Shown here piece by piece: positions 1 through 9,516 of a stretch of 9,516 bases of DNA; within the stretch, counting starts at the first letter, position 1, and each line of letters begins with the position of its first letter. This DNA is from a virus (taxonomy: Duplodnaviria; Heunggongvirae; Uroviricota; Caudoviricetes): IMG/VR virus record IMGVR_UViG_3300029722_000071, positions 1 through 9,516 of that record, one strand, 5' to 3'. Under the pieces are notes generated by a model. That model was not told where the DNA came from. It did not search any database and saw only the letters and a list, made by a program, of their open reading frames with translations. A program made the position numbers and the translations under genes.

Positions 1-19
1 CTAATGGCGGTATGTGATA

Positions 20-95
20 TGGTGGCCCTTGCTGGATTTGAACCAGCGACCTGGCGATTATGAGTCGCTCGCTCTCACCACTGAGCTAAAGGGCC
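20..95 (-). tRNA. tRNA with CAU anticodon, tRNA-Ile2 (lysidine-type, ileX/ileY/ileZ-like); elongator tRNA-Met not excluded
   Basis: Reverse complement of 20..95 is GGCCCTTTAGCTCAGTGGTGAGAGCGAGCGACTCATAATCGCCAGGTCGCTGGTTCAAATCCAGCAAGGGCCACCA (76 nt): 7-bp acceptor stem, D arm GCTC/GAGC, anticodon loop CTCATAA (anticodon CAT), T arm with GGTTCAAATCC, encoded CCA. Overall pattern matches E. coli tRNA-Ile2 as I recall it. Confidence 0.8.
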
Positions 96-135
96 GGGCG
101 CAGGATAATAACGGTACGTAACTAATCCTGCAATA

Positions 136-1194
136 TCATCCATTCTGACTGACTAAATCCTGTACTTCCCTGACCGTCTGCTCAAAACGTTCAGTCTCCA
201 GCTCAACGCCAGTTGCACGACGCCCCAGCGCCATCGCAGCTTTGACTGTCGAACCCGACCCCATGAAGAAATCTGCAACCAGGTCACCCGGACGACTGCT
301 CGCACTGATTATCTGCTGCAGCATTTCTGCCGGTTTTTCGCACGGATGTTTCCCGGGATAGTACTGCACCGGTTTATGCGTCCACACATCCGTGTACGGT
401 ACCTGCGCAGTTACGCCAAAATACCGCCGCAGATGCTTATATTCACTCTGCAGTTCCGCATACTGCCGGTTCAGTGAAGTATACGTCTCCAGCAGCTGGT
501 GGTGGGGCTTTTCCAGTTCACCGCGCTGATGCTTCTCTTCTGCCACCCGGGCAAACAGCGCCTGTAATTTCAGATAATCGCTTTCGTTCGGTAGCTGCCA
601 CTGACCGGCACTGAACCAGTGCGACACCATGTTTTTCTTTCCTGTGGCATCCACTATCTGTTTTGCCGTTATCCCCAGGGCAGCACGCGCATCACGAAAG
701 TAAGCAATCAGCGGAGCCATCACATGCTGTTTCAGTGCCCTGCCCTTCGCCTCATACCCGGCATCTTTCGGGCGATACGGCCCCTGATAATGTTCCGCGA
801 ACAGAATGCGCTCTGTGGCGGGGAAATACGCCCTCAGGCTTTCCTTGTTGCACCCGTTCCAGCGTCCGGACGGCTTCGCCCAGATAATATGGTTCAGCAC
901 ACTGAAGCGTTCACGCATCATGATTTCGATATCAGATGCCAGGCGATGGCCACAGAACAGGTAAAGACTTCCGGCAGGTTTCAGCACCCGCCAGAACTGC
1001 GCAAGACACTGGTCCAGCCATTTCAGGTAATCATCGTCGCCCTTCCACTGGTTATCCCAGCCCTCAGGCTTCACTTTAAAGTACGGCGGGTCCGTGACTA
1101 TCAGGTCAACAGAATTTTCGGGTAACGACCGGATAAATTCCAGGCAGTCGGCGTTGATTAACTCACAACTGGATATTTTTACAGTGTTAAACAT
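136..1194 (-). CDS. DNA methyltransferase, beta-class N6-adenine/N4-cytosine type (orphan; no adjacent restriction gene)
   Basis: 352-aa ORF with catalytic DPPY motif near the N-terminus (IVTDPPYF) and the SAM-binding FxGxG motif near the C-terminus (DFFMGSGST), the motif IV-before-motif I order of beta-class amino-MTases. ATG start at 1194. Target sequence cannot be inferred. Confidence 0.85.
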   Translation of the reverse strand: MFNTVKISSCELINADCLEFIRSLPENSVDLIVTDPPYFKVKPEGWDNQWKGDDDYLKWLDQCLAQFWRVLKPAGSLYLFCGHRLASDIEIMMRERFSVLNHIIWAKPSGRWNGCNKESLRAYFPATERILFAEHYQGPYRPKDAGYEAKGRALKQHVMAPLIAYFRDARAALGITAKQIVDATGKKNMVSHWFSAGQWQLPNESDYLKLQALFARVAEEKHQRGELEKPHHQLLETYTSLNRQYAELQSEYKHLRRYFGVTAQVPYTDVWTHKPVQYYPGKHPCEKPAEMLQQIISASSRPGDLVADFFMGSGSTVKAAMALGRRATGVELETERFEQTVREVQDLVSQNG

Positions 1195-1330
1195 GGATCA
1201 TTAAGCCTGTCTCTGATAGGCTCATTCTGCTTTTGCGCAAAGCAGTGGGCCTGAGGTTTGCTTGTGATCCGGACGCATGAGCAGATGGCTGGTGAGTGCC
1301 CCTAACACCCACCAGCCGCCCATTTACCAC

Positions 1331-1358
1331 AAATAAAAAAGCCTTCAGGACTGAAGGC
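1331..1358 (-). terminator. Rho-independent terminator for minus-strand transcripts
   Basis: Plus strand 1341..1358 gccttca-ggac-tgaaggc (7-bp stem, 4-nt loop) preceded by aaataaaaaa (1331..1340), so the minus-strand RNA has the hairpin followed by a U-run. Overlaps the stop codon of the 1345..1542 gene. Confidence 0.7.
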
Positions 1359-1542
1359 GTCTGTAACAACCGAACTGATAGTCTGCCAGCCCCGCCATAA
1401 CAAGCTGGGTCAGTATTAACTGACAGCGTTCGCGTGAAAGGTACGTATTCTGTGCAATCTCCCCGACTGTCGCCGGTTCGGTGACGCTTAATTCATTAAA
1501 CACCACTCTGGCGGTTTCGGTCATATCCTGCTGTTTCAGCAT
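1345..1542 (-). CDS. small winged-helix DNA-binding protein (65 aa), hypothetical; FaeA/PapI-like pattern possible
   Basis: Track ORF 1345..1665 shortened to the internal ATG at 1542 (MLKQQDMTETARVV...), which has an AGGGA Shine-Dalgarno about 7 nt upstream; the longer N-terminal extension runs through an upstream terminator hairpin. Sequence TVGEIAQNTYLSRERCQLILTQLVMAG looks like a helix-turn-helix/wing. Confidence 0.5.
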   Translation of the reverse strand: MLKQQDMTETARVVFNELSVTEPATVGEIAQNTYLSRERCQLILTQLVMAGLADYQFGCYRRLQS

Positions 1543-1663
1543 GTCTTTTTCCCTTTTCCGGTTAACGTGACACACCAATAACTCTTGTCGAAAAAGCCAG
1601 CAAGCTGAAAGAACGGTATTAATAACCACCAGCGAATTTATTGCGCTGCTGTATATTACGGAC

Positions 1664-1686
1664 ACAAAAAAACCACCTTCCGGTGG
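1664..1686 (-). terminator. Candidate intrinsic terminator (tR-prime-like) downstream of the Q-like gene
   Basis: Plus 1673..1686 ccacc-ttcc-ggtgg (5-bp GC stem, GGAA tetraloop on the minus strand) preceded by a 7-A run (1666..1672), giving a U7 tract after the hairpin on the minus-strand RNA. About 75 nt downstream of the Q-like stop. Confidence 0.5.
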
Positions 1687-1759
1687 CTTCCTTGTGCGAA
1701 AAAAACTTGCATTTCGCCTCGCGATACAGCCTTGCGAAGCTTATACGGATTGAAGCAGT

Positions 1760-2332
1760 TTATTGATCAGTTTGCAACATTTTTTTCTCTGTAACAAAAG
1801 CCATACGCATGGGGGCATGTAACATAAATTCAGATATCCCCAACCACTGATCAATTCGGCGTCTGCACGTAACCAACGTCCACTCAGGATGATCTGCATT
1901 TAACCTTTCGGCCATTTTCAGTTTGCTCATTCCCCGTCCTTCGTACCTTTGCCGGAGAATATTGATTAGTCCGGGATATTCCCCAAGCACCTCACTGATA
2001 ACGCGATCAATAATCAACGCCTCTGTGTCTGTACAATGTGACAACCAGCTCTTCTGCTTCCCTCTGGTCATATCCCGAAAAAATGCCTCAAGTTCCGGTT
2101 TTTCCAGCCCGGATTTCTTCATTCTGCGTAAAACCTCATTAACTGCTGTTTTCGTCAGCTTTTTCGAAACCAGTAACCGGTTAAACATATTTCCGGATTT
2201 ACCCCCACCGATATACGACCACCGCCCCCACATCCGTAATTTCCCCTGGATCCAGACTGCTTCCAGCGTGTTCAGGCGTAAATGTTCGCCGCTTTTGCCT
2301 GTAATTTCCGGATATATCATATTTACGCTCAC
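1760..2332 (-). CDS. putative late-gene antiterminator Q-like protein (190 aa); function assigned mainly by synteny
   Basis: Lies immediately downstream of rusA with a GTGA stop/start overlap, as Q does in phage 82/DLP12-type lambdoids, and is followed by a promoter-sized gap and a terminator. N-terminal WGRW motif resembles the WGAW of QuuD-type Q proteins as I recall them. No motif-level proof. Confidence 0.5.
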   Translation of the reverse strand: MSVNMIYPEITGKSGEHLRLNTLEAVWIQGKLRMWGRWSYIGGGKSGNMFNRLLVSKKLTKTAVNEVLRRMKKSGLEKPELEAFFRDMTRGKQKSWLSHCTDTEALIIDRVISEVLGEYPGLINILRQRYEGRGMSKLKMAERLNADHPEWTLVTCRRRIDQWLGISEFMLHAPMRMAFVTEKKMLQTDQ

Positions 2333-2694
2333 TCACTCTCAATTTTGTAAATCTTCACACCCAGCCGACCACCAAGAACAAGCTGACCACGTACAATATT
2401 GATTTCATCAAACTGCTCATCGTCCATTAACAACCCCGCATGCGTAAGCGCATCCAGCGGTGCTTTCAGAATATTGTCCAGGTCACGGCGGCGCTTATCC
2501 GGTGGTTCTGCAATAATTTTTATTGCCAACCGTCCGGACAGGCTTAATTTCAAGCGCTGCTGGCGAACAATAAGCGCCACTGCCCGGCGATAACGCTCCC
2601 CGGCTTTTGATACAAAATATGTGCTGCCACGGCGTCGCCAGTAAGTGTTCACCGTCGGCGGGTAAGGCAAAACAAATTCTATGCGTTCGGTCAT
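2329..2694 (-). CDS. rusA: RusA-family Holliday junction resolvase (crossover junction endodeoxyribonuclease)
   Basis: 121-aa product MTERIEFVLPYPPTVNTYWRRRG...PDKRRRDLDNILKAPLDALT...GGRL matches the E. coli RusA pattern (LPWPPS.N.Y, PDRRRRDLDN, GGRL). ATG at 2694 directly follows the upstream stop. Confidence 0.9.
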   Translation of the reverse strand: MTERIEFVLPYPPTVNTYWRRRGSTYFVSKAGERYRRAVALIVRQQRLKLSLSGRLAIKIIAEPPDKRRRDLDNILKAPLDALTHAGLLMDDEQFDEINIVRGQLVLGGRLGVKIYKIESE

Positions 2695-3759
2695 TTATGC
2701 TTTCCACTTCAGAACACCCGAATTTCTCGCGTGCATTAAAAAACGAATCAGCAACAACAGCTGACTGCCGTGTTTCTCTTCAAAATCTTTTACTCCGGCG
2801 TGTAGTTCGTTATGGCATTTACGGCACAGCGGAATAACAAACAAATCGTCAGCCTTTGTTCCCATCCCTCCCAGTCCATGACCAATGATGTGATGCGGAT
2901 CATCTGCCTGATTGCCACACGTCATGCATTTCTGCGTTTTTACCCAGCGCGTGTATACAGGCATCTCTTCCCGTTGTGGTTTCTGGCGCTGGAGATACTG
3001 AGCCGGAGATTCCGGATCAACGGCAATGCTGACCACCGTCTTTTCCTGTGGTGGGTTCTGTTGCTGGTGCTGGTGGACGTGAGGCGGTAGCGCAATATTT
3101 TTTGTGCGCTGCTTCAGTATGCTGGTGGCTGTCTGTTCTCCCGGTACGATGTCGCTCTCACTGTATACGGAGCGGATTTTTTTCACCGGTAATCCCAGTG
3201 AACGACGCAATACAGACTCCGGAAGCGCATCAGCCACCTGATTGCAGACCGCCCACCAGGATAATTCGGCCAGCGATAACTCCCTCTCCTGCGTACCGCT
3301 GATTGCGTGACGGATGACGTCAATCATCCATGCTGACAGGTTTTGATGAGCAAGTTGCCCGAGTGATTCGGATGTCTGGTCACGCAGCTGGTTGTCGCAG
3401 TGCCAGCACAACACCATCGCGCCGGTACCGTAACGATGTATGACGATTTCACTGTGATGATAGTCACCATGAGGCCACTGGCAGGATTTGACATGACGCA
3501 ACAGCCAGTCAGACAGTGCCCCAGCACCACCAGCAGCACGAATCACCCGATCATCGCTGAAAAATGGCAGTAATGATTTATCCTCCGCCAGCGGCTGGCG
3601 AACAGCAGGGACGACTCCGGACGGCAGATTACGCATGCTTTTCGGTTCCGGCTCCACCAGTACCCGGGTATTGTGGAATACCGGCATGGATTCACGGCCC
3701 GGCTTAACGATCACCAGCCCGAGTTCCGGTACCAGAACAGGTCGAAGTAATACCCGCAC
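2695..3759 (-). CDS. DUF968-family (YdfU-like) protein with C-terminal HNH-type zinc-finger nuclease motif
   Basis: 354-aa ORF; C-terminus CMTCGNQADDPHHIIGHGLGG...PLCRKCHNELH has the Cys pairs and His residues of an HNH zinc finger. GTG start at 3759 has a GGAGG Shine-Dalgarno 4 nt upstream. Same position relative to hok as ydfU in the K-12 Qin prophage. Confidence 0.75.
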   Translation of the reverse strand: MRVLLRPVLVPELGLVIVKPGRESMPVFHNTRVLVEPEPKSMRNLPSGVVPAVRQPLAEDKSLLPFFSDDRVIRAAGGAGALSDWLLRHVKSCQWPHGDYHHSEIVIHRYGTGAMVLCWHCDNQLRDQTSESLGQLAHQNLSAWMIDVIRHAISGTQERELSLAELSWWAVCNQVADALPESVLRRSLGLPVKKIRSVYSESDIVPGEQTATSILKQRTKNIALPPHVHQHQQQNPPQEKTVVSIAVDPESPAQYLQRQKPQREEMPVYTRWVKTQKCMTCGNQADDPHHIIGHGLGGMGTKADDLFVIPLCRKCHNELHAGVKDFEEKHGSQLLLLIRFLMHARNSGVLKWKA

Positions 3760-3760
3760 G

Positions 3761-4039
3761 TTACCTCCAGATGCGTTGCTGGAATGTGCGGGACGGACGC
3801 GGTGGGCGTTCAGAGTAAGGAAGCCTGACGGAGATTATCCAGTGACGATAATCGAGGCTGAGGGTTTTCCTAAACTCATACCCACGTCTGCGGTAGTTCT
3901 GAATCAGCCATTCGGCCTGTTCTTCAGTGCATGGGGCGTGCTGTAACCAGTCAGATTTGAATGCATGAGAACGCCGCCCGTGCCTGCTGGCAAAGACGGC
4001 TGAATTATCAGAATTGTATAATTTGGTATCGTGCGCCAT
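3761..4039 (-). CDS. hypothetical protein (92 aa); positional equivalent of rem in Qin-type prophages
   Basis: Track ORF 3761..4120 shortened to the ATG at 4039 (MAHDTKLYNSDNSAVF...), because the TTG-initiated extension overlaps the hok terminator U-tract. No recognisable motif. Confidence 0.5.
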   Translation of the reverse strand: MAHDTKLYNSDNSAVFASRHGRRSHAFKSDWLQHAPCTEEQAEWLIQNYRRRGYEFRKTLSLDYRHWIISVRLPYSERPPRPSRTFQQRIWR

Positions 4040-4110
4040 CGGTTGTCTCTGCTGGCGCAGCAGGTGCCAGTTGTTCAGGCTGGCGTGCGAATTGTAAACC
4101 AGAATGCCAG

Positions 4111-4138
4111 GAAAAAACAAAACCCGCCGAAGCGGGTT
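4111..4138 (-). terminator. Rho-independent terminator of the hok transcript
   Basis: Plus 4121..4138 aacccgc-cgaa-gcgggtt (7-bp stem, UUCG tetraloop on the minus strand) preceded by gaaaaaacaa, giving a U-rich tail on the minus-strand RNA. An additional 9-bp hairpin ggcgaggga/tccctcgcc lies at 4179..4200, where an fbi-like hok 3-prime element would be expected. Confidence 0.75.
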
Positions 4139-4206
4139 AAGTGCGGGTGCGTTGAGGATGCCTGACTCATCAGAGGTGGCGAGGGATTTCTCCCTCGCCA
4201 GGTCTC

Positions 4207-4362
4207 TTACTCCTCAGGTTCGTAAGCTGTGAAGACAGCGACCTCCGTCTGGCCGGTTCGGATTCGTACCTCGCAGAGGTCTTTCCTCGTTACCAGTGCC
4301 GTCACAATGACGGTAATACAGATGACGATCAGGGCGACTAACATCGCCTTTTGCTGCTTCAT
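4207..4362 (-). CDS. hokD: Hok/Gef-family type I toxin (51 aa), HokD/RelF-type
   Basis: Product MKQQKAMLVALIVICITVIVTALVTRKDLCEVRIRTGQTEVAVFTAYEPEE is nearly identical to E. coli K-12 HokD/RelF as I recall it. ATG at 4362 with AAGGAG Shine-Dalgarno; the track ORF extends in-frame to an upstream ATG at 4419. Confidence 0.9.
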   Translation of the reverse strand: MKQQKAMLVALIVICITVIVTALVTRKDLCEVRIRTGQTEVAVFTAYEPEE

Positions 4363-4409
4363 AGCCTGCTTCTCCTTGCCTTTCGGCGTGTAAGAGGCTA
4401 ACCTACATG

Positions 4410-4486
4410 TGACTAGCATGAAATTGGCCTCAGATTAATGTTAAGCGTCCTGCAAGACGCATAATGTTAACTGGGGCTTTTCTCTG
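4410..4486 (+). ncRNA. candidate Sok-like antisense RNA (approximate boundaries)
   Basis: Plus-strand region antisense to the hok leader around the upstream mok-like ATG: long-range stem gcctcag (4427..4433) / ctggggc (4471..4477) enclosing hairpin gcgtc-ctgcaa-gacgc (4445..4460), followed by uuuucucu. Position matches where sok lies in plasmid R1 hok/sok. Promoter not confidently located. Confidence 0.35.
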
Positions 4487-4535
4487 TCTGCCTTACGGTG
4501 GCATGCCCGAGGCAGACAGCCTCAAGCACCCGCAG

Positions 4536-4566
4536 CAATTCTACTTAACTCTCGCTTTACCGCAAA
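4536..4566 (-). promoter_or_regulatory. candidate sigma70 promoter of the hok mRNA
   Basis: On the minus strand: -35 TTGCGG (plus 4560..4565), 16-bp spacer, -10 TAGAAT (plus 4538..4543), about 7 nt before a 5-prime sequence GGUGCUUGAGGCUGUCUGCC that resembles the R1 hok mRNA 5-prime end as I recall it. Confidence 0.4.
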
Positions 4567-4577
4567 CCGTTTTTACC

Positions 4578-4599
4578 CGATATGGGAATTCCCATATCG
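4578..4599. promoter_or_regulatory. 22-bp perfect palindrome just upstream of the hok promoter; candidate protein-binding site
   Basis: cgatatgggaattcccatatcg is a perfect inverted repeat (11-bp arms, no spacer), about 12 bp upstream of the candidate -35. Not followed by a U-run on either strand, so not a terminator. Confidence 0.3.
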
Positions 4600-4607
4600 T
4601 AATGAAT

Positions 4608-4712
4608 TCAGTTCCCTAGTCGATCCATCAAAAACACAACCAGGCAGTAAACACCCACAACAGCAATAACAGCCAGCGCACCTTCCATTGCCAGTGAGAT
4701 ATCATCCGACAC
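4608..4712 (-). CDS. candidate small hydrophobic protein (34 aa) missing from the ORF track
   Basis: Minus strand reads AAAGGAGGGAAT-GTG TCG GAT GAT ATC ... TGA, giving MSDDISLAMEGALAVIAVVGVYCLVVFLMDRLGN: a strong Shine-Dalgarno 4 nt before GTG and one predicted transmembrane helix. Start codon uncertain (in-frame ATG at 4688 would give 26 aa). Confidence 0.3.
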   Translation of the reverse strand: MSDDISLAMEGALAVIAVVGVYCLVVFLMDRLGN

Positions 4713-4827
4713 ATTCCCTCCTTTGGTGTTAATCCCGGCGAACGCTTTTACCCACACCGACAAATAACATATACTAAAAAAGCGATAGCCATAGCAACGC
4801 CTGTAATTGCAAATGCTTCAGGCTAGG

Positions 4828-5745
4828 TCATTGGCGTACCTCCTTCGGCGGTTCTGGTAGCGGCATCCAGTGGGTTACTTTCGATGCCGGTTCTTCCCCA
4901 TTGTCAGTAACTGCCCACCATTTGTTTCTCGAACAATCGTAATACCCTTCGAAGGTATCGCACTCAGTCCAGCCGTAAGACTTACCCCAACACCAAACAT
5001 ACTGTTTATCGTTCGGCATTCGCTCACTACAGCTTATCCAACCATCCGGAGTTACCGGAGAGTTGCCCGATAGTGCATTCTGCTCCAGTGATGCTTTTAC
5101 AAACCACGCTGCCTGAACTATAACGCCATGAATCCAGCGCAAATCAGCATCGCGATCTTTCTTTTTCATCTTTTCGCCACTTAAGGCCTTGCTTATGTGG
5201 CTGCGTACCAGGTCTTCATGCAATTCCTTCGCCTCCTCAATGGTGAAACCACCAGGCAGAAGAGCCGGAGTTACCGGAGAGCTGGTTGACGCTTCCGGGA
5301 TTTCCCGAAAATTATTGGTTGACGAATTCTTGCTTTCCCGAAAGTTTCCGGACTGAAGCATGGCGGTGCGGCAGGCGTTCCATATTTCGGCAGCAATATC
5401 GCGCTCGCTATCGGTTAATTTGTACGTGGAAACATAGCCAGAGAGCATTTCTACGTTTTCCGGAGTTGCTTCTTCCGGCACTACCGGCGCTGGCGGGGCG
5501 GCAAATAGATATCCGCCAAAGTCAGGAAGCTCTCCAATGGCCTGTACGAACTTTTGTTTGCCTACGTCAACTCCTAATGGGTAATGAGCTATAATCTTTG
5601 CCACCGGCTCTGCTTCCAGCGATACCAGTGCAATTCGTGCCAGTTCTTCCGCTTCTTCTGCTGGCAGTACAACGTTGCTACCCGGTCCGTATGTTTCGCG
5701 CCACTGCTTGATTGTCAGCAGTCGCCCTTTGGTAATAGTGATCAT
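4828..5745 (-). CDS. DUF551 domain-containing phage protein (305 aa)
   Basis: C-terminus DGWISCSERMPNDKQYVWCWGKSYGWTECDTFEGYY...VTHWMPLPEPPK matches the DUF551 signature as I recall it. ATG at 5745 overlaps the upstream stop (ATGA). Confidence 0.8.
   Translation of the reverse strand: MITITKGRLLTIKQWRETYGPGSNVVLPAEEAEELARIALVSLEAEPVAKIIAHYPLGVDVGKQKFVQAIGELPDFGGYLFAAPPAPVVPEEATPENVEMLSGYVSTYKLTDSERDIAAEIWNACRTAMLQSGNFRESKNSSTNNFREIPEASTSSPVTPALLPGGFTIEEAKELHEDLVRSHISKALSGEKMKKKDRDADLRWIHGVIVQAAWFVKASLEQNALSGNSPVTPDGWISCSERMPNDKQYVWCWGKSYGWTECDTFEGYYDCSRNKWWAVTDNGEEPASKVTHWMPLPEPPKEVRQ
5046..5062. repeat. 17-bp perfect direct repeat, copy 1, inside the DUF551 gene
   Basis: ccggagttaccggagag at 5046..5062 and again at 5265..5281, 219 bp apart (in frame); both copies encode the S-P-V-T-P peptide. 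Confidence 0.7.
5265..5281. repeat. 17-bp perfect direct repeat, copy 2, inside the DUF551 gene
   Basis: Identical to 5046..5062. Confidence 0.7.
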
Positions 5746-6257
5746 GCCGCGTTTCCTTCTTTCTTATTAACAATCACACCGTCATATATTTCATTAAGGT
5801 GCCCTCTCAACTCCATGCGCCTTAATGCAGATAACATGTAATCGCATTCAACCTGCTTATTCCCAGTAAATGGCTTATCGTCAGGATTACCCCAACAGCA
5901 ATTACCCCTGGGCCATCCATGTACTTTCCGTACTCTTCCGTTAACAACGTGAAGTAATCCCCAGCCGGGAGGTAAATCCTCAACTGAAATAATTTCCGGC
6001 TCACTAATAAAGAATCGCCAGTCGCCCATGCCAAGTGAGGGATTTTTACGGAAACGCTTTTTTCTATCTGCCAACAAGTCAGCACGAGAACACTTCGCCT
6101 CTATCAGGCATGATGCTGAATTTCTGAATCCCATAGCATCTGGCTGTTCTCCGGTACTGGTTACAGCAACAAAGCGGTCATGAAAGCAAACCTTGAACCC
6201 GTTGCGCTTAAGGAACTTGTACGCAATCTGACAGAGTTCGTGGTGTGTTAACGCCAT
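5742..6257 (-). CDS. putative PD-(D/E)xK-fold nuclease-like protein (171 aa)
   Basis: Track ORF 5742..6290 shortened to the ATG at 6257, which sits behind the duplicated GGAGAG-TGA-n-ATG junction. Sequence ...VAVTSTGEQPDAMGF-8 aa-CLIEAKCSRADL has the hydrophobic-strand D ... E-x-K spacing of restriction-endonuclease-like nucleases. Confidence 0.55.
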   Translation of the reverse strand: MALTHHELCQIAYKFLKRNGFKVCFHDRFVAVTSTGEQPDAMGFRNSASCLIEAKCSRADLLADRKKRFRKNPSLGMGDWRFFISEPEIISVEDLPPGWGLLHVVNGRVRKVHGWPRGNCCWGNPDDKPFTGNKQVECDYMLSALRRMELRGHLNEIYDGVIVNKKEGNAA

Positions 6258-6282
6258 ATCACTCTCCTTTGATGCGAATGCC
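6255..6282. repeat. 28-bp duplicated gene-junction module, copy 1
   Basis: cat-a-tcactctcctttgatgcgaatgcc at 6255..6282; apart from one base it is identical to 7098..7125. Encodes the ...GIRIKGE-stop tail of the upstream gene, a GGAGAG Shine-Dalgarno and the ATG of the next gene. Confidence 0.75.
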
Positions 6283-6780
6283 TGTTGCAATGCTGTTTAT
6301 GATGCTGTCAGTGCATGGGGTAGAAAGCTGGGCATCTCCAGCAATTTTCATGACCTCAACATCTGCATATCGAATACCGAGGTGTATCAGACCGGCTATG
6401 CCTGACTTAAGTCGAACATTTTCCATAAACAGATCTTTTTCCCGCTGTTTAGCGGCTTCCAACTCCATCGACAATTTTTCCAACTGCTCTTTATGCTTCT
6501 TGTATTCCTGATACGCGTGCCAAGACTGACCTTTGCGCACACTATCAGTGATATCAGCAACCTGCTCCGGTGTTAGCGTGGTCAGTGGCTGTGCTGGAAA
6601 AATCATCACCTTCCCGGCATCCCAATCAAAACCCGCCTGAATTGACTGAACCTCAACTGATGGTGTTGAACCGATGCGACCAGGCGAATGAACAACGATC
6701 GTTACATCCATATCGCGACGATGGCTGTGGTTGTTGGACAAAATACGATTCACCAACTCAGAAAATTTGGAAAATTTCAT
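6259..6780 (-). CDS. hypothetical coiled-coil protein with C-terminal GIRIKGE tail (173 aa)
   Basis: Track ORF 6259..6909 shortened to the ATG at 6780 ([14 protein letters not shown]...), which overlaps the upstream stop (ATGA). C-terminal ...ATGIRIKGE is shared with the 7102..7851 product. Confidence 0.55.
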
Positions 6781-7100
6781 GCTGATCCCTCTTTTTCTCC
6801 CCGGATAATTCTGTTGCACACATCCACACACTCGTCGCAGATGAAAACGGCGTCCCCAGCAATTAACTTTTTGACGGCGTACTGGGATTTGTTGCAGAAG
6901 CTGCAACAAAGTGTTCGCCTGACTGATAAGGATGGAGCGCCAGATGTCAGCCGCTCCATATCGTTCTTGCGACGCAATATCACACGGCTGAACTCAACCA
7001 GTTTCTCCGGGGATATCTCCTCCTCCGTAGCAAGCGCCTCTAATCGTTCGAGTATGTGGAAGGCTTTTTTCTGGGTAATTGCAGAATGCGATGTGGTCAT
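6777..7100 (-). CDS. small protein with C-terminal ClpX-type C4 zinc-finger domain (107 aa)
   Basis: Track ORF 6777..7142 shortened to the ATG at 7100, behind the conserved junction. C-terminal [39 protein letters not shown] closely parallels the ClpX N-terminal zinc-binding domain ([39 protein letters not shown], as I recall it). Confidence 0.75.
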
Positions 7101-7125
7101 CTCACTCTCCTTTGATGCGAATGCC
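7098..7125. repeat. 28-bp duplicated gene-junction module, copy 2
   Basis: cat-c-tcactctcctttgatgcgaatgcc at 7098..7125; see copy 1. Confidence 0.75.
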
Positions 7126-7851
7126 AGCGGCGCGGGAATCATTCCATCGCTTTACTTCTTCACGAATTACGTCAATGCACTCTTTCGAATCCATTAGGTA
7201 ATCTTCATCAAAAAGACGTTCCTGTTCGTTTTCTATCGCAACAATGATTGCTTCAACTAACTTTTGTGCCTGAGAACCACTTTCTAACTCTGCAATGCGC
7301 TTCTCTGCGGCTTCCAGATTCTCGCGCATATCGTCAACGTACTCGACCAGAGATCCGCCAGCAGGAATTTCGCATTCCTCGACCAGTTGGAAGTAGATAT
7401 CAGCTGCGGCCCGTGTGTTGCTATGCCTAGCGTCGCCCATCTCACCTTCACGAAGAGCATCGCGTTCGGCGGTAAGATTGGCTATTTTGCTGTCTTTGCC
7501 TTCCAGCTCAACGCGCAGCCTCCCAACCGTAAGCGCAATATCCTCGTTCTCCTGATCGCGGCTTTTGATGTATTGCAGGTTTCTTTCCCGTTCATCCAGC
7601 AGTGCCAGCACGGTAGCCGGGTTAGCCTCTGCTATGAATTCAGCGTTTGCATAAGCCTGAGCATCTGTTTCAACCAGGCAGTTAACGTGACATTCTGCAA
7701 TTACGCCACCGGGTTCTCCTTTCCATTTTTGACAAACAAAAACTCCTGTTAAATTGCCGTGTTGGTTAACAGATGTATGCCCTACGATGTAGCTTCCTTT
7801 AGTTGCTTTCTCTGCCTTTTCACGCAGTGCCTGATAGTTAATCTCGCTCAC
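7102..7851 (-). CDS. ead/Ea22-like coiled-coil protein (249 aa); family assignment tentative
   Basis: GTG start with GGAGG Shine-Dalgarno, overlapping the upstream stop (GTGA). N-terminus [17 protein letters not shown] and the segment [18 protein letters not shown] resemble prophage ead/Ea22-like proteins as I recall them; C-terminal ...AAGIRIKGE. Confidence 0.55.
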
Positions 7852-8072
7852 TCTTCATCCTCCAAGTCGGCAACGGCGTCCATCACATCAGAACCGCGAA
7901 TAACCTCAAAAGCACGGCAGGCCATTTGAAATACCAGTTGCTCTTGCGGGTGAGGAGACTCCCAATATTTGAAGCCTGGGCGATGCGTGTACCCCATCAT
8001 TGAATAAAAATCACCAGCAAGCTTAATCGCGGCATCGACAAGCTCTCTGTTAGTCATTCTTTTTCCGCTCAC
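7848..8072 (-). CDS. hypothetical protein (74 aa), mildly acidic C-terminus
   Basis: GTG start at 8072 with AAGGAGG Shine-Dalgarno 6 nt upstream, overlapping the upstream stop (GTGA). No recognisable motif. Confidence 0.55.
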   Translation of the reverse strand: MSGKRMTNRELVDAAIKLAGDFYSMMGYTHRPGFKYWESPHPQEQLVFQMACRAFEVIRGSDVMDAVADLEDEE

Positions 8073-8500
8073 TGGTTGCCTCCTTTGCGAAGCTGGGCAG
8101 CAAAGTCAACTAACCACTCAGTCATTTCAACCTTCCCTACCAGGTCTGAACCAGGGTACATACAGCAATCACTCTGCGCCGCTTTGAAATCCTTATACTC
8201 ATATTCTTGGGCCACCAGATTTTTTGCAGCTTCTATAGCAGCATCCACCCCCTGCGCCCGGACTTCAGCCAGGAAAGCATCAGTGGCTGGCATATTTCCT
8301 GTTGCCTTCATTGCCTCCAAAATAACCAGAACGCCATCTCGCCCAATCTCCTCGCAGATAACCTCGGTGCTGTCGCCAACAACATCGCAAAATGCCTGAA
8401 CTGCTTTACGAGCCAGCGCATCTTCCGCCCTGTGAAACGCCTCGCGGTTGAAATTTTCATATCCCGTCATTGGACCGGCAATATAAACTCTCACCCTCAC
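8069..8500 (-). CDS. hypothetical protein with DUF4406 / nucleoside 2-deoxyribosyltransferase-like N-terminal motif (143 aa)
   Basis: GTG start at 8500 with AGGAGG Shine-Dalgarno. N-terminus MRVRVYIAGPMTGYENFNREAFHRAEDAL matches the YIAGPMTG...N..F..A DUF4406 signature as I recall it; the C-terminal MYPGSDLVGKVEMTEW may correspond to its LPGWE.S.G motif. The roughly 80 residues between do not look like that family. Confidence 0.5.
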   Translation of the reverse strand: MRVRVYIAGPMTGYENFNREAFHRAEDALARKAVQAFCDVVGDSTEVICEEIGRDGVLVILEAMKATGNMPATDAFLAEVRAQGVDAAIEAAKNLVAQEYEYKDFKAAQSDCCMYPGSDLVGKVEMTEWLVDFAAQLRKGGNQ

Positions 8501-8889
8501 TCCATCACCTCCTGAAAGTTTCCCCGATAGAACGCCAGCACACGCTGCATAACTTCGCTCCTCCTGCTCTCACGACAAATTATGTTCTGCCGTCTGTTGT
8601 AACGACGTATTTCTCCGTCAGGTAACTTTCGAATCAGTGTCGGGTCAGCAGCCTTCTCCGGTGTCTTACGCCATACGCGATACGCCTGCTCTGATGGAAA
8701 TACCCCGCAACCAGAGAGCCAGACATCACCACTGGCCGCAAGCGCACCAGATAAACGACGAATAGCGGTCTTACTGACACCCGTTTTATCTGCCAGTTGT
8801 CGAAAAGTTTCTCGTCCGCTCAGGCGCACGAATTCCACAATGCGCGCCTTCACTTCTTCCCGCTCTTCTGGTGTAAATACTTTTGCCAT
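8497..8889 (-). CDS. helix-turn-helix DNA-binding protein (130 aa), hypothetical
   Basis: Track ORF 8497..8904 (TTG start) shortened to the ATG at 8889, which has a GGAGG Shine-Dalgarno 5 nt upstream. HTH-like segment ETFRQLADKTGVSKTAIRRLSGAL. Confidence 0.55.
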   Translation of the reverse strand: MAKVFTPEEREEVKARIVEFVRLSGRETFRQLADKTGVSKTAIRRLSGALAASGDVWLSGCGVFPSEQAYRVWRKTPEKAADPTLIRKLPDGEIRRYNRRQNIICRESRRSEVMQRVLAFYRGNFQEVME

Positions 8890-8904
8890 AAGCGCCTCCG
8901 GCAA

Positions 8905-9486
8905 TCACTTTTCCGACACAATACGACCGGATGAATCGACAATCTGTCGAACAATATCCCGGTGCTTGTTCAGCTCCCGCAGCGCGGCGCAGACTCGCTC
9001 CCACTTCTGAACCTGACCTTTTGCCCGGCGCAGCTCGCGGTTAGCCACATGCAGCGATGGTAAAATCAGACCATCCGGATGTTTTCTGGTGAACGACGGC
9101 TGTGACTGCACTGTGACCGCCACACTTTCCGTTTTTATTTCTTCCTGTGTTTCTGCTTCCCGGACAGGTAACGCAACACCTGCTGGCTGAGGAAAGGCTT
9201 TACCATCGGTTTCCGCTACGGATGCAGCTTCCGGCTCTGCCGGTAAATCAGCGCCCGGTATGCAGTAACGAAATTTACCGCCCTGATTCACGCGAATCAG
9301 ACGCCCTTTGCTGATTGCCATGGCCAGCGATGAATTCGCCCGGCGGGAGGTAATCCCGAACATCAGTGCCAGCTCATCCGCCGTTTGTGGGCCATGTTGT
9401 TCAATCGCCTCAGTCAACATTTGCGCTGTCACTTTCGGTACCGGTGACACCGGTTCACTTTCACCAGCCTGAATCAGCCACCACAT
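8905..9486 (-). CDS. hypothetical protein with N-terminal winged-helix-like region (193 aa); may extend beyond the window
   Basis: ATG at 9486 has an AAGGG Shine-Dalgarno-like sequence upstream, but the frame stays open to the window end at 9516, so the true start could lie outside. No recognisable catalytic motif. Confidence 0.5.
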
Positions 9487-9516
9487 CGAACCCTTGTTAT
9501 CCGCTTCACCGCGGCG

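Follow-up and report, generated by a model that had tools for sequence, protein, structure and literature searches.

Does the gene at positions 5742-6257 (minus strand) of a 9,516-nt stretch of virus DNA encode a nuclease and, if so, on what DNA might such an enzyme act? The stretch, which in its full length we call the window, comprises positions 1 to 9,516 of IMG/VR record IMGVR_UViG_3300029722_000071 (Caudoviricetes), and the gene is an intact open reading frame (ORF) for a protein of 171 amino acids (aa), which a preliminary description had called PD-(D/E)xK nuclease-like by eye from two short segments of its translation. Judging from its relatives and from structure models, we conclude that the gene product is very probably a small enzyme that cuts DNA and has the restriction-endonuclease fold. 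What is directly established comprises its fold and homology, the conservation of its motif, its operon setting and its distribution; the catalysis, substrate class and biological role we infer from these, and with reasonable, though far from full, confidence we favor a catalytically competent, metal-dependent PD-(D/E)xK phosphodiesterase that serves as a stand-alone, structure- or lesion-specific DNA endonuclease.

Motif conservation and predicted fold

Both segments from which the call had been made are present in the sequence and its translation. GEQPDAMGF (aa 36-44; 6126-6152, minus strand) holds E37 and a literal 'PD' motif, P39-D40, and CLIEAK (aa 50-55; 6093-6110, minus strand) ends in E53-x-K55. 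On the same strand, the codon at 6177-6179 encodes D27, an acidic residue just past predicted strand 1, and SRADLLAD (aa 57-64; 6066-6089) corresponds to a post-ExK helix carrying S57, R58, D60 and D64. On sequence grounds, the D...ExK spacing is by itself not beyond chance; it is the conservation that makes the motif real. This was counted in 148 listed representatives of 50%-identity clusters, aligned to the family hidden Markov model (HMM). D40 and E37 are each kept in 143 of 144 representatives, P39 in 137 of 144 (95%), and E53 and K55 each in 145 of 146, and position 27 is D or E in 136 of 137; each of D/E27, E37, D40, E53 and K55 is at least 99% conserved. The extended signature includes D60 (146/146), D64 (146/148), K67 and R70 (147/147 each) and R81 (147/148). 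In an alignment of 46 members with 34-56% identity to the window protein, L8, D40, D60, G78 and R81 are invariant, and H5, E37, P39, G43, E53, K55, S57, F61, D64, K67, R70, W99, E137, R146 and R147 are at least 90% conserved.

AlphaFold2 gave a predicted local distance difference test score (pLDDT) of 84.5 and a predicted template modeling score (pTM) of 0.79 from a 27-sequence alignment, and a pLDDT of 94.0 and a pTM of 0.87 from the diverse 46-sequence alignment. The topology is the same in both models, with a helix at 5-18, strands at 22-26, 41-45 and 48-54, a helix at 58-64, a strand at 80-85, a hairpin at 100-113 and a long helix at 134-150. In these models P39-D40 precede and enter strand 2 (41-45) and E53-x-K55 end strand 3 (48-54), which would place them at the canonical positions. 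The preliminary description had let its call depend on an alpha-beta-beta-beta-alpha-beta nuclease core in the predicted structure and on conservation of the motif residues in homologues; the core is predicted in both models and the residues are among the best-conserved positions of the family, so that, together with the profile-profile match described below, the call made by eye is well supported. A Foldseek search of BFVD returned 18 viral matches at E <= 1e-3, several of which are named MmcB-like or MmcB family DNA repair protein.

A sister family of MmcB-like nucleases

A word-indexed search found 308 relatives of the window protein, all unnamed or 'hypothetical' and nearly all without a Pfam domain, and an exhaustive HMMER search with a 27-sequence profile retrieved 3,330 representatives of 50%-identity clusters at E <= 1e-3, 2,437 of them at E <= 1e-10. 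The PHROG matches were families 9263 and 631, both of unknown function, with an additional weak match to a 'DNA repair protein' (E 0.0046). Against the PDB sequences, the single nuclease sequence found nothing meaningful, a profile of close homologues found 3dnx at E 0.35 only, and the diverse family profile found 3dnx at E 1.5e-4 with the motifs in register. The matched segment of 3dnx is itself PF06319, MmcB-like (E 2.3e-31), a 95-aa piece of it scoring 109 bits.

Alignment of the nuclease family by hhalign with an MmcB profile, built from 16 aligned MmcB-family proteins, gave 98.2% probability and an E of 5.3e-14 over 122 columns. It pairs D40 with MmcB D39, E53-x-K55 with E53-x-K55 of MmcB (E53-C-K55), S57-R58-x-D60-F61-x-x-D64 with an identical MmcB signature (SRADFxxD), R81 with R76, and the C-terminal 'ALRR' helix with MmcB 'AARR'; D27 aligns with the invariant E28/E29 of MmcB proteins. 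Reciprocal HMM searches between the two families scored 25-30 bits, and sub-threshold Pfam matches to MmcB-like were obtained for 14 of the 46 family members (best E 2.9e-4).

MmcB-like (PF06319, formerly DUF1052; COG5321), with SPO1766 of Ruegeria pomeroyi (3dnx) and MmcB of Caulobacter crescentus, is thus the closest family, and DUF1052 has been counted among the PD-(D/E)xK families, as a mostly alphaproteobacterial one represented by structure 3dnx (PMC3424549). Common to both are an acidic residue after strand 1, a D before strand 2, the string E-x-K-x-S-R-x-D-F-x-x-D-x-K, an R-(F/Y)-(F/W) strand 4, LP..GL(L/I) and a C-terminal helix with RR, and the proteins are alike in being small (~150-170 aa) and single-domain. 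Unlike MmcB, however, the window family has a 7-residue insertion with an invariant K67-x-x-R70...G76-x-G78, near-invariant E37 and H5, which are absent in MmcB, an extra loop at 114-133 and a conserved E137. The gathering threshold of PF06319 (22 bits), Pfam's own criterion, is not reached by the window protein, and for this reason we do not file it there. By sequence comparison the family is a distinct one without a curated model, a remote sister, not a member, of MmcB-like within the PD-(D/E)xK superfamily. Literature searches covering MmcB-like, DUF1052, DUF551/Ea22 and the exo-xis region turned up no paper on the nuclease gene.

Distribution and neighborhoods of the family

The nuclease gene is carried by 928 of 5,426 complete E. 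coli genomes (17%), with 248 copies on plasmids, and by 137 phage records at the DNA level and 643 at the protein level, including Vibrio phages, Tenacibaculum phage PTm1 and virulent Ackermannviridae; most of the matching Stx1/Stx2-converting phage records carry it. For the neighborhoods, 57 related loci were taken from species-representative genomes, 51 of them with a recognizable target ORF, and their ORFs were called and clustered all-vs-all. The loci span Gammaproteobacteria, Alphaproteobacteria, Bacteroidota, Bacillota, Deferribacterales, Spirochaetales and Acidobacteriota. No recurrent neighbor family at a fixed position was found in the 51 loci, the recurring neighbors being generic: S24 repressor, lambda-type integrase, DnaB, phage O, a DnaC/IstB-like loader, NinG, RdgC, TraC/TraG and DNA methyltransferases. 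Most often the gene is surrounded by genes for replication, recombination and DNA methylation. Because no neighbor is fixed, the nuclease protein appears to work alone.

Toxin-antitoxin, two-gene defense-system and restriction-modification readings were rejected, there being no recurrent partner in the 51 loci. A type II restriction-modification endonuclease was rejected as well, since an adjacent, consistent cognate methyltransferase was found neither in the window nor in Escherichia phage Lys8385Vzw nor in these loci.

In two gammaproteobacterial loci (Pantoea and Alteromonas; L024, 6480-9083, and L032, 3076-5625) the homologue lies beside F-type TraC/TraG, and the family is therefore found on conjugative elements too, not on phages alone. 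The Ackermannviridae homologue is ~200 aa long and matches aa 4-113 only, that is, the nuclease core, with a different C-terminal part. In Klebsiella phage FKP14 (positions 3980-4591 of the locus) and ~160 other Ackermannviridae records the next gene is that for a homing endonuclease and the one after it that for a primase, and some of these records name the homologue 'DNA repair protein'.

What the nuclease might do

Our consideration of the mechanism starts from the predicted active site. D/E27, D40 and E53 would hold Mg2+ and K55 would position the attacking water, with the post-ExK helix (S57, R58, D60, D64), the K67-x-x-R70 loop, R81 and the C-terminal helix (E137, R146, R147) perhaps completing the active site and the DNA-binding surface. 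Action alone is most likely, because the protein is only 171 aa long, lacks a separate recognition domain and is not bound to any one partner gene; it probably works as a homo-oligomer, although the oligomeric state is a guess. Expressed from the phage early operon alongside replication, recombination and DNA-modification functions, the enzyme might, early in the phage's DNA metabolism, act on intermediates that are branched or damaged, presumably by recognizing structure or damage, not sequence.

Several observations weigh against this scenario. Scanned against Pfam and NCBIfam, the nuclease protein matched nothing at E <= 1. In the PDB, Foldseek returned no match at E <= 1e-3 (best E 0.01) and missed 3dnx, although the top-ranked matches, weak as they were, are restriction-fold proteins (AF1548, Hjc, the R2 endonuclease domain and Bax1). 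A RusA gene lies in the same window (2329-2694), 3 kb from the nuclease gene and in the same operon direction, and NinG is found elsewhere in 6 related loci, which makes a resolvase role, as one form of activity on branched DNA, unlikely. Nor has the substrate of MmcB itself been established; the review reports a hypothesized role only (PMC9578287).

Other functions may be considered for the same protein. An offensive or competitive nuclease, which would degrade the host chromosome or the DNA of competing phages or plasmids, or else defeat a host defense, seems unlikely to us, although not negligibly so; in one variant it would be a methylation-sensitive, restriction-like enzyme, with the phage's own genome shielded by phage-encoded orphan methyltransferases. 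Restriction enzymes of a size comparable to the 171-aa protein exist, the window carries an N6_N4 DNA methylase gene (136-1194), and methylases are frequent near the homologues, N6/N4 or C5 types lying within ±6 kb in 14 of the 51 loci and Dam, D12 and MT-A70 types occurring too. However, the methylase is adjacent in only 3 of the 51 loci, with type and position (-15 to +7 genes) varying, that of the window, the nearest there, lies 4.5 kb from the nuclease gene, beyond Q, RusA and hok, and in Lys8385Vzw there is none within 7 kb of the gene. Compared with small type II or stand-alone PD-(D/E)xK nucleases (SdaI, NgoMIV, the FokI cleavage domain, VRR-NUC, NucS), moreover, the window family lacks a DNA-recognition domain and a cognate methyltransferase at a fixed position, and its high conservation across phyla, with a fixed extended signature, is far stronger than is typical of the fast-evolving restriction enzymes. 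A scan with PADLOC-DB 2.0 matched no defense-system family at E <= 0.1, and the gene belongs to a repressor-controlled early operon of a temperate phage, the P7 copy being behind the C1 operator, so that it would not be expressed in a lysogen to defend it. A role closer to that of the nearest relative, with the family as a phage-borne version of the MmcB crosslink/lesion-repair nuclease, we also regard as rather unlikely. The PD-(D/E)xK endonuclease MmcB of Caulobacter is under SOS control, confers protection against mitomycin C and cisplatin, and has been hypothesized to work with translesion polymerases in removing interstrand crosslinks (PMC9578287). By analogy, DNA damage that induces a prophage (mitomycin C, oxidative stress) would injure the prophage DNA too, and an endonuclease made early might unhook the lesions, or cut at them, whether in the phage genome or at stalled forks, allowing replication to proceed; the short Ackermannviridae version beside primase might do the same at replication forks. 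If this is true, the gene would increase the number of phages produced, and with Stx phages the amount of toxin, specifically when the inducing agent is genotoxic. The genetic settings differ: MmcB genes are chromosomal and mostly alphaproteobacterial (PMC3424549), that of Caulobacter being SOS-regulated, whereas the window gene lies in a prophage early operon and its family occurs on prophages, virulent phages, phage-plasmids and conjugative elements of many phyla.

The matches to archaeal proteins raise the possibility, in our estimate a decidedly small one, of a phage resolvase for Holliday junctions or branched DNA, a counterpart of archaeal Hjc that would debranch concatemers before packaging. 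Archaeal Hjc/Hje (PF01870) and AHJR-like (PF18743) proteins have the same minimal nuclease core and the same motif order (PD ... ExK, then S/T), and DUF1052 has been tied to archaeal Holliday-junction resolvases by profile analysis (PMC1189080). Sub-threshold Hjc matches were obtained for 27 of the 46 family members, Hjc chains were the next-best PDB sequence matches after 3dnx (E ~0.2), with the PD and ExK motifs aligned, and Hjc entries were, as noted, among the best Foldseek matches. The relation to these resolvases is nevertheless more distant than that to MmcB-like, neither the PF01870 gathering threshold nor a close structural match being reached. The nearby RusA makes a resolvase role unnecessary and less likely, and the co-occurrence with NinG points the same way. 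The resolvases of lambdoid phages are usually encoded at a fixed position near Q; the gene considered here, however, is in a shuffling Ea22/DUF551 cassette. It is very improbable, finally, that the protein keeps the nuclease fold without catalysis, to bind DNA or to regulate, or that its target is RNA, as with a ribonuclease or toxin. A regulatory function would suit the company of Ea22, which is reported to bias the lysis-lysogeny decision (PMC7093339). The near-total conservation of the metal-binding set (D/E27, D40, E53, K55) in 148 divergent representatives argues for catalysis, however, the gene has no antitoxin-like partner or fixed neighbor, and the closest characterized relative is described as a DNA-repair endonuclease.

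With the structure- or lesion-specific endonuclease retained as our preferred reading, the protein is of a known kind, PD-(D/E)xK nucleases of the MmcB/Hjc-like sort having been described before, and no new kind of system is revealed. What is new is the assignment to the PD-(D/E)xK nucleases of a very common phage gene family that is un- or misannotated. The assignment supplies a testable activity and specific residues (D40, E53, K55), justifies a new curated family model, and leads one to ask why relatives of a crosslink-repair nuclease are present on so many mobile elements. The Ackermannviridae carriers include virulent phages used in phage therapy.

Gene boundaries and translation signals

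Read from the sequence, the nuclease ORF runs on the minus strand from an ATG at 6257-6255 to a stop at 5744-5742. A strong Shine-Dalgarno sequence, AAGGAG, can be read directly at 6264-6269 (minus strand), 6 nt upstream of this ATG, and the stop of the upstream Ea22-like gene (6261-6259) ends 1 nt before it. An in-frame TTG at 6290 was rejected as the start: it falls within the upstream gene, and a canonical ribosome-binding site precedes the ATG at 6257. At the other end, an ATGA (5742-5745, minus strand) combines the stop codon of the nuclease ORF with the start codon of DUF551, which suggests translational coupling. A promoter or terminator of the gene's own was rejected, since promoter- and terminator-like sites were not more numerous than in shuffled sequence, and the GC content at the nuclease gene (0.46-0.47), slightly under that of the surroundings, is uninformative.

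A 24-nt junction sequence, GGCATTCGCATCAAAGGAGAGTGA, occurs in two exact copies on the minus strand, at 6259-6282 and at 7102-7125, with none expected by chance. It encodes the shared C-terminus ..GIRIKGE* of two Ead/Ea22-like ORFs, and it supplies the stop codon together with the Shine-Dalgarno sequence ahead of the next ATG, which is that of the nuclease gene (6257) in one case and that of the ClpX-type zinc-finger gene (7100) in the other. This looks like a conserved module junction and could mediate cassette shuffling via homologous recombination.

The cassette and its setting in the window

The window is a segment of a lambdoid prophage with minus-strand transcription. In the direction of transcription, the order is DUF1627, DUF977, a DUF4406-like gene, a 74-aa ORF, Ead/Ea22, the ClpX-type zinc finger, the Ea22-like gene, the nuclease, DUF551, sok RNA with hok, a 119-aa ORF, DUF968/HNH, RusA, a Q-like antiterminator (DUF1133), the N6/N4 methylase and a tRNA, with overlapping or abutting stop and start codons linking the genes around the nuclease. 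Immediately upstream of the nuclease gene is that for an Ea22-like C-terminal-type protein (6259-6780, minus strand; PHROG 6026/368; probable ATG at 6780), the equivalent of which is annotated 'ead/Ea22-like' in RefSeq and P7, and immediately downstream is that for a DUF551 protein (4828-5745, minus strand; PF04448, E 1.6e-17).

The same neighbors are seen in two other elements. In Lys8385Vzw, where the nuclease DNA is 100% identical, the gene has the Ea22-like and DUF551 genes on either side and belongs to the early-left region, close to int (positions 6438-8066 of the locus). The phage-plasmid P7 has a homologue with 97% protein identity, upf89.0, in the 'hea' operon behind the C1 operator (positions 3313-5811 of the locus); the gene order matches, with upf88.3 as the ead/Ea22-like gene upstream and upf89.5, a candidate for the DUF551 gene, downstream. 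In the window, the corresponding interval (4828-6780) lies between replication genes and Q. The Ea22-like/nuclease/DUF551 trio thus appears to move as a cassette that takes different positions in different phages. The 'accessory cluster' of the preliminary description fits a gene that travels in such a cassette; here, however, the cassette is embedded in a long, translationally coupled early operon.

The family is currently labeled 'hypothetical' or, wrongly, 'minor tail protein' or frameshifted pseudogene. In RefSeq P7 the homologue upf89.0 (positions 4001-4516 of the locus) is mislabeled 'minor tail protein,' and in RefSeq E. coli RM8385 (positions 7338-7516 of the locus) a 100% identical gene is marked as a frameshifted pseudogene. 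The DUF551 gene of Lys8385Vzw (positions 6438-7004 of the locus) is labeled 'valyl-tRNA synthetase.'

Upstream of the cassette, a ClpX-type C4 zinc-finger protein of 107 aa is encoded at 6777-7100 (minus strand; PF06689, E 1.7e-15; PHROG 6797, unknown function), its stop overlapping the ATG of the Ea22-like gene as ATGA (6777-6780); the protein might act on the host ClpX protease, as an adaptor or as an inhibitor. On the other side of the cassette, a complete hok/sok-type toxin-antitoxin locus lies inside the prophage early operon (4207-4531, minus strand), made up of a Hok/Gef family ORF (4207-4419, minus strand; Pfam E 1.3e-23) and the sok antitoxin RNA RF01794 (4357-4531, minus strand; 117.6 bits). 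A tRNA gene (23-95, minus strand; RF00005, 72.5 bits) is located downstream of the DNA methylase gene. The ORF at 8069-8500 (minus strand) matches DUF4406/nucleoside 2-deoxyribosyltransferase over its first ~30 residues only and the Ea22-region PHROGs 368/492 over the rest, and it looks like a mosaic fusion or a recombination remnant.

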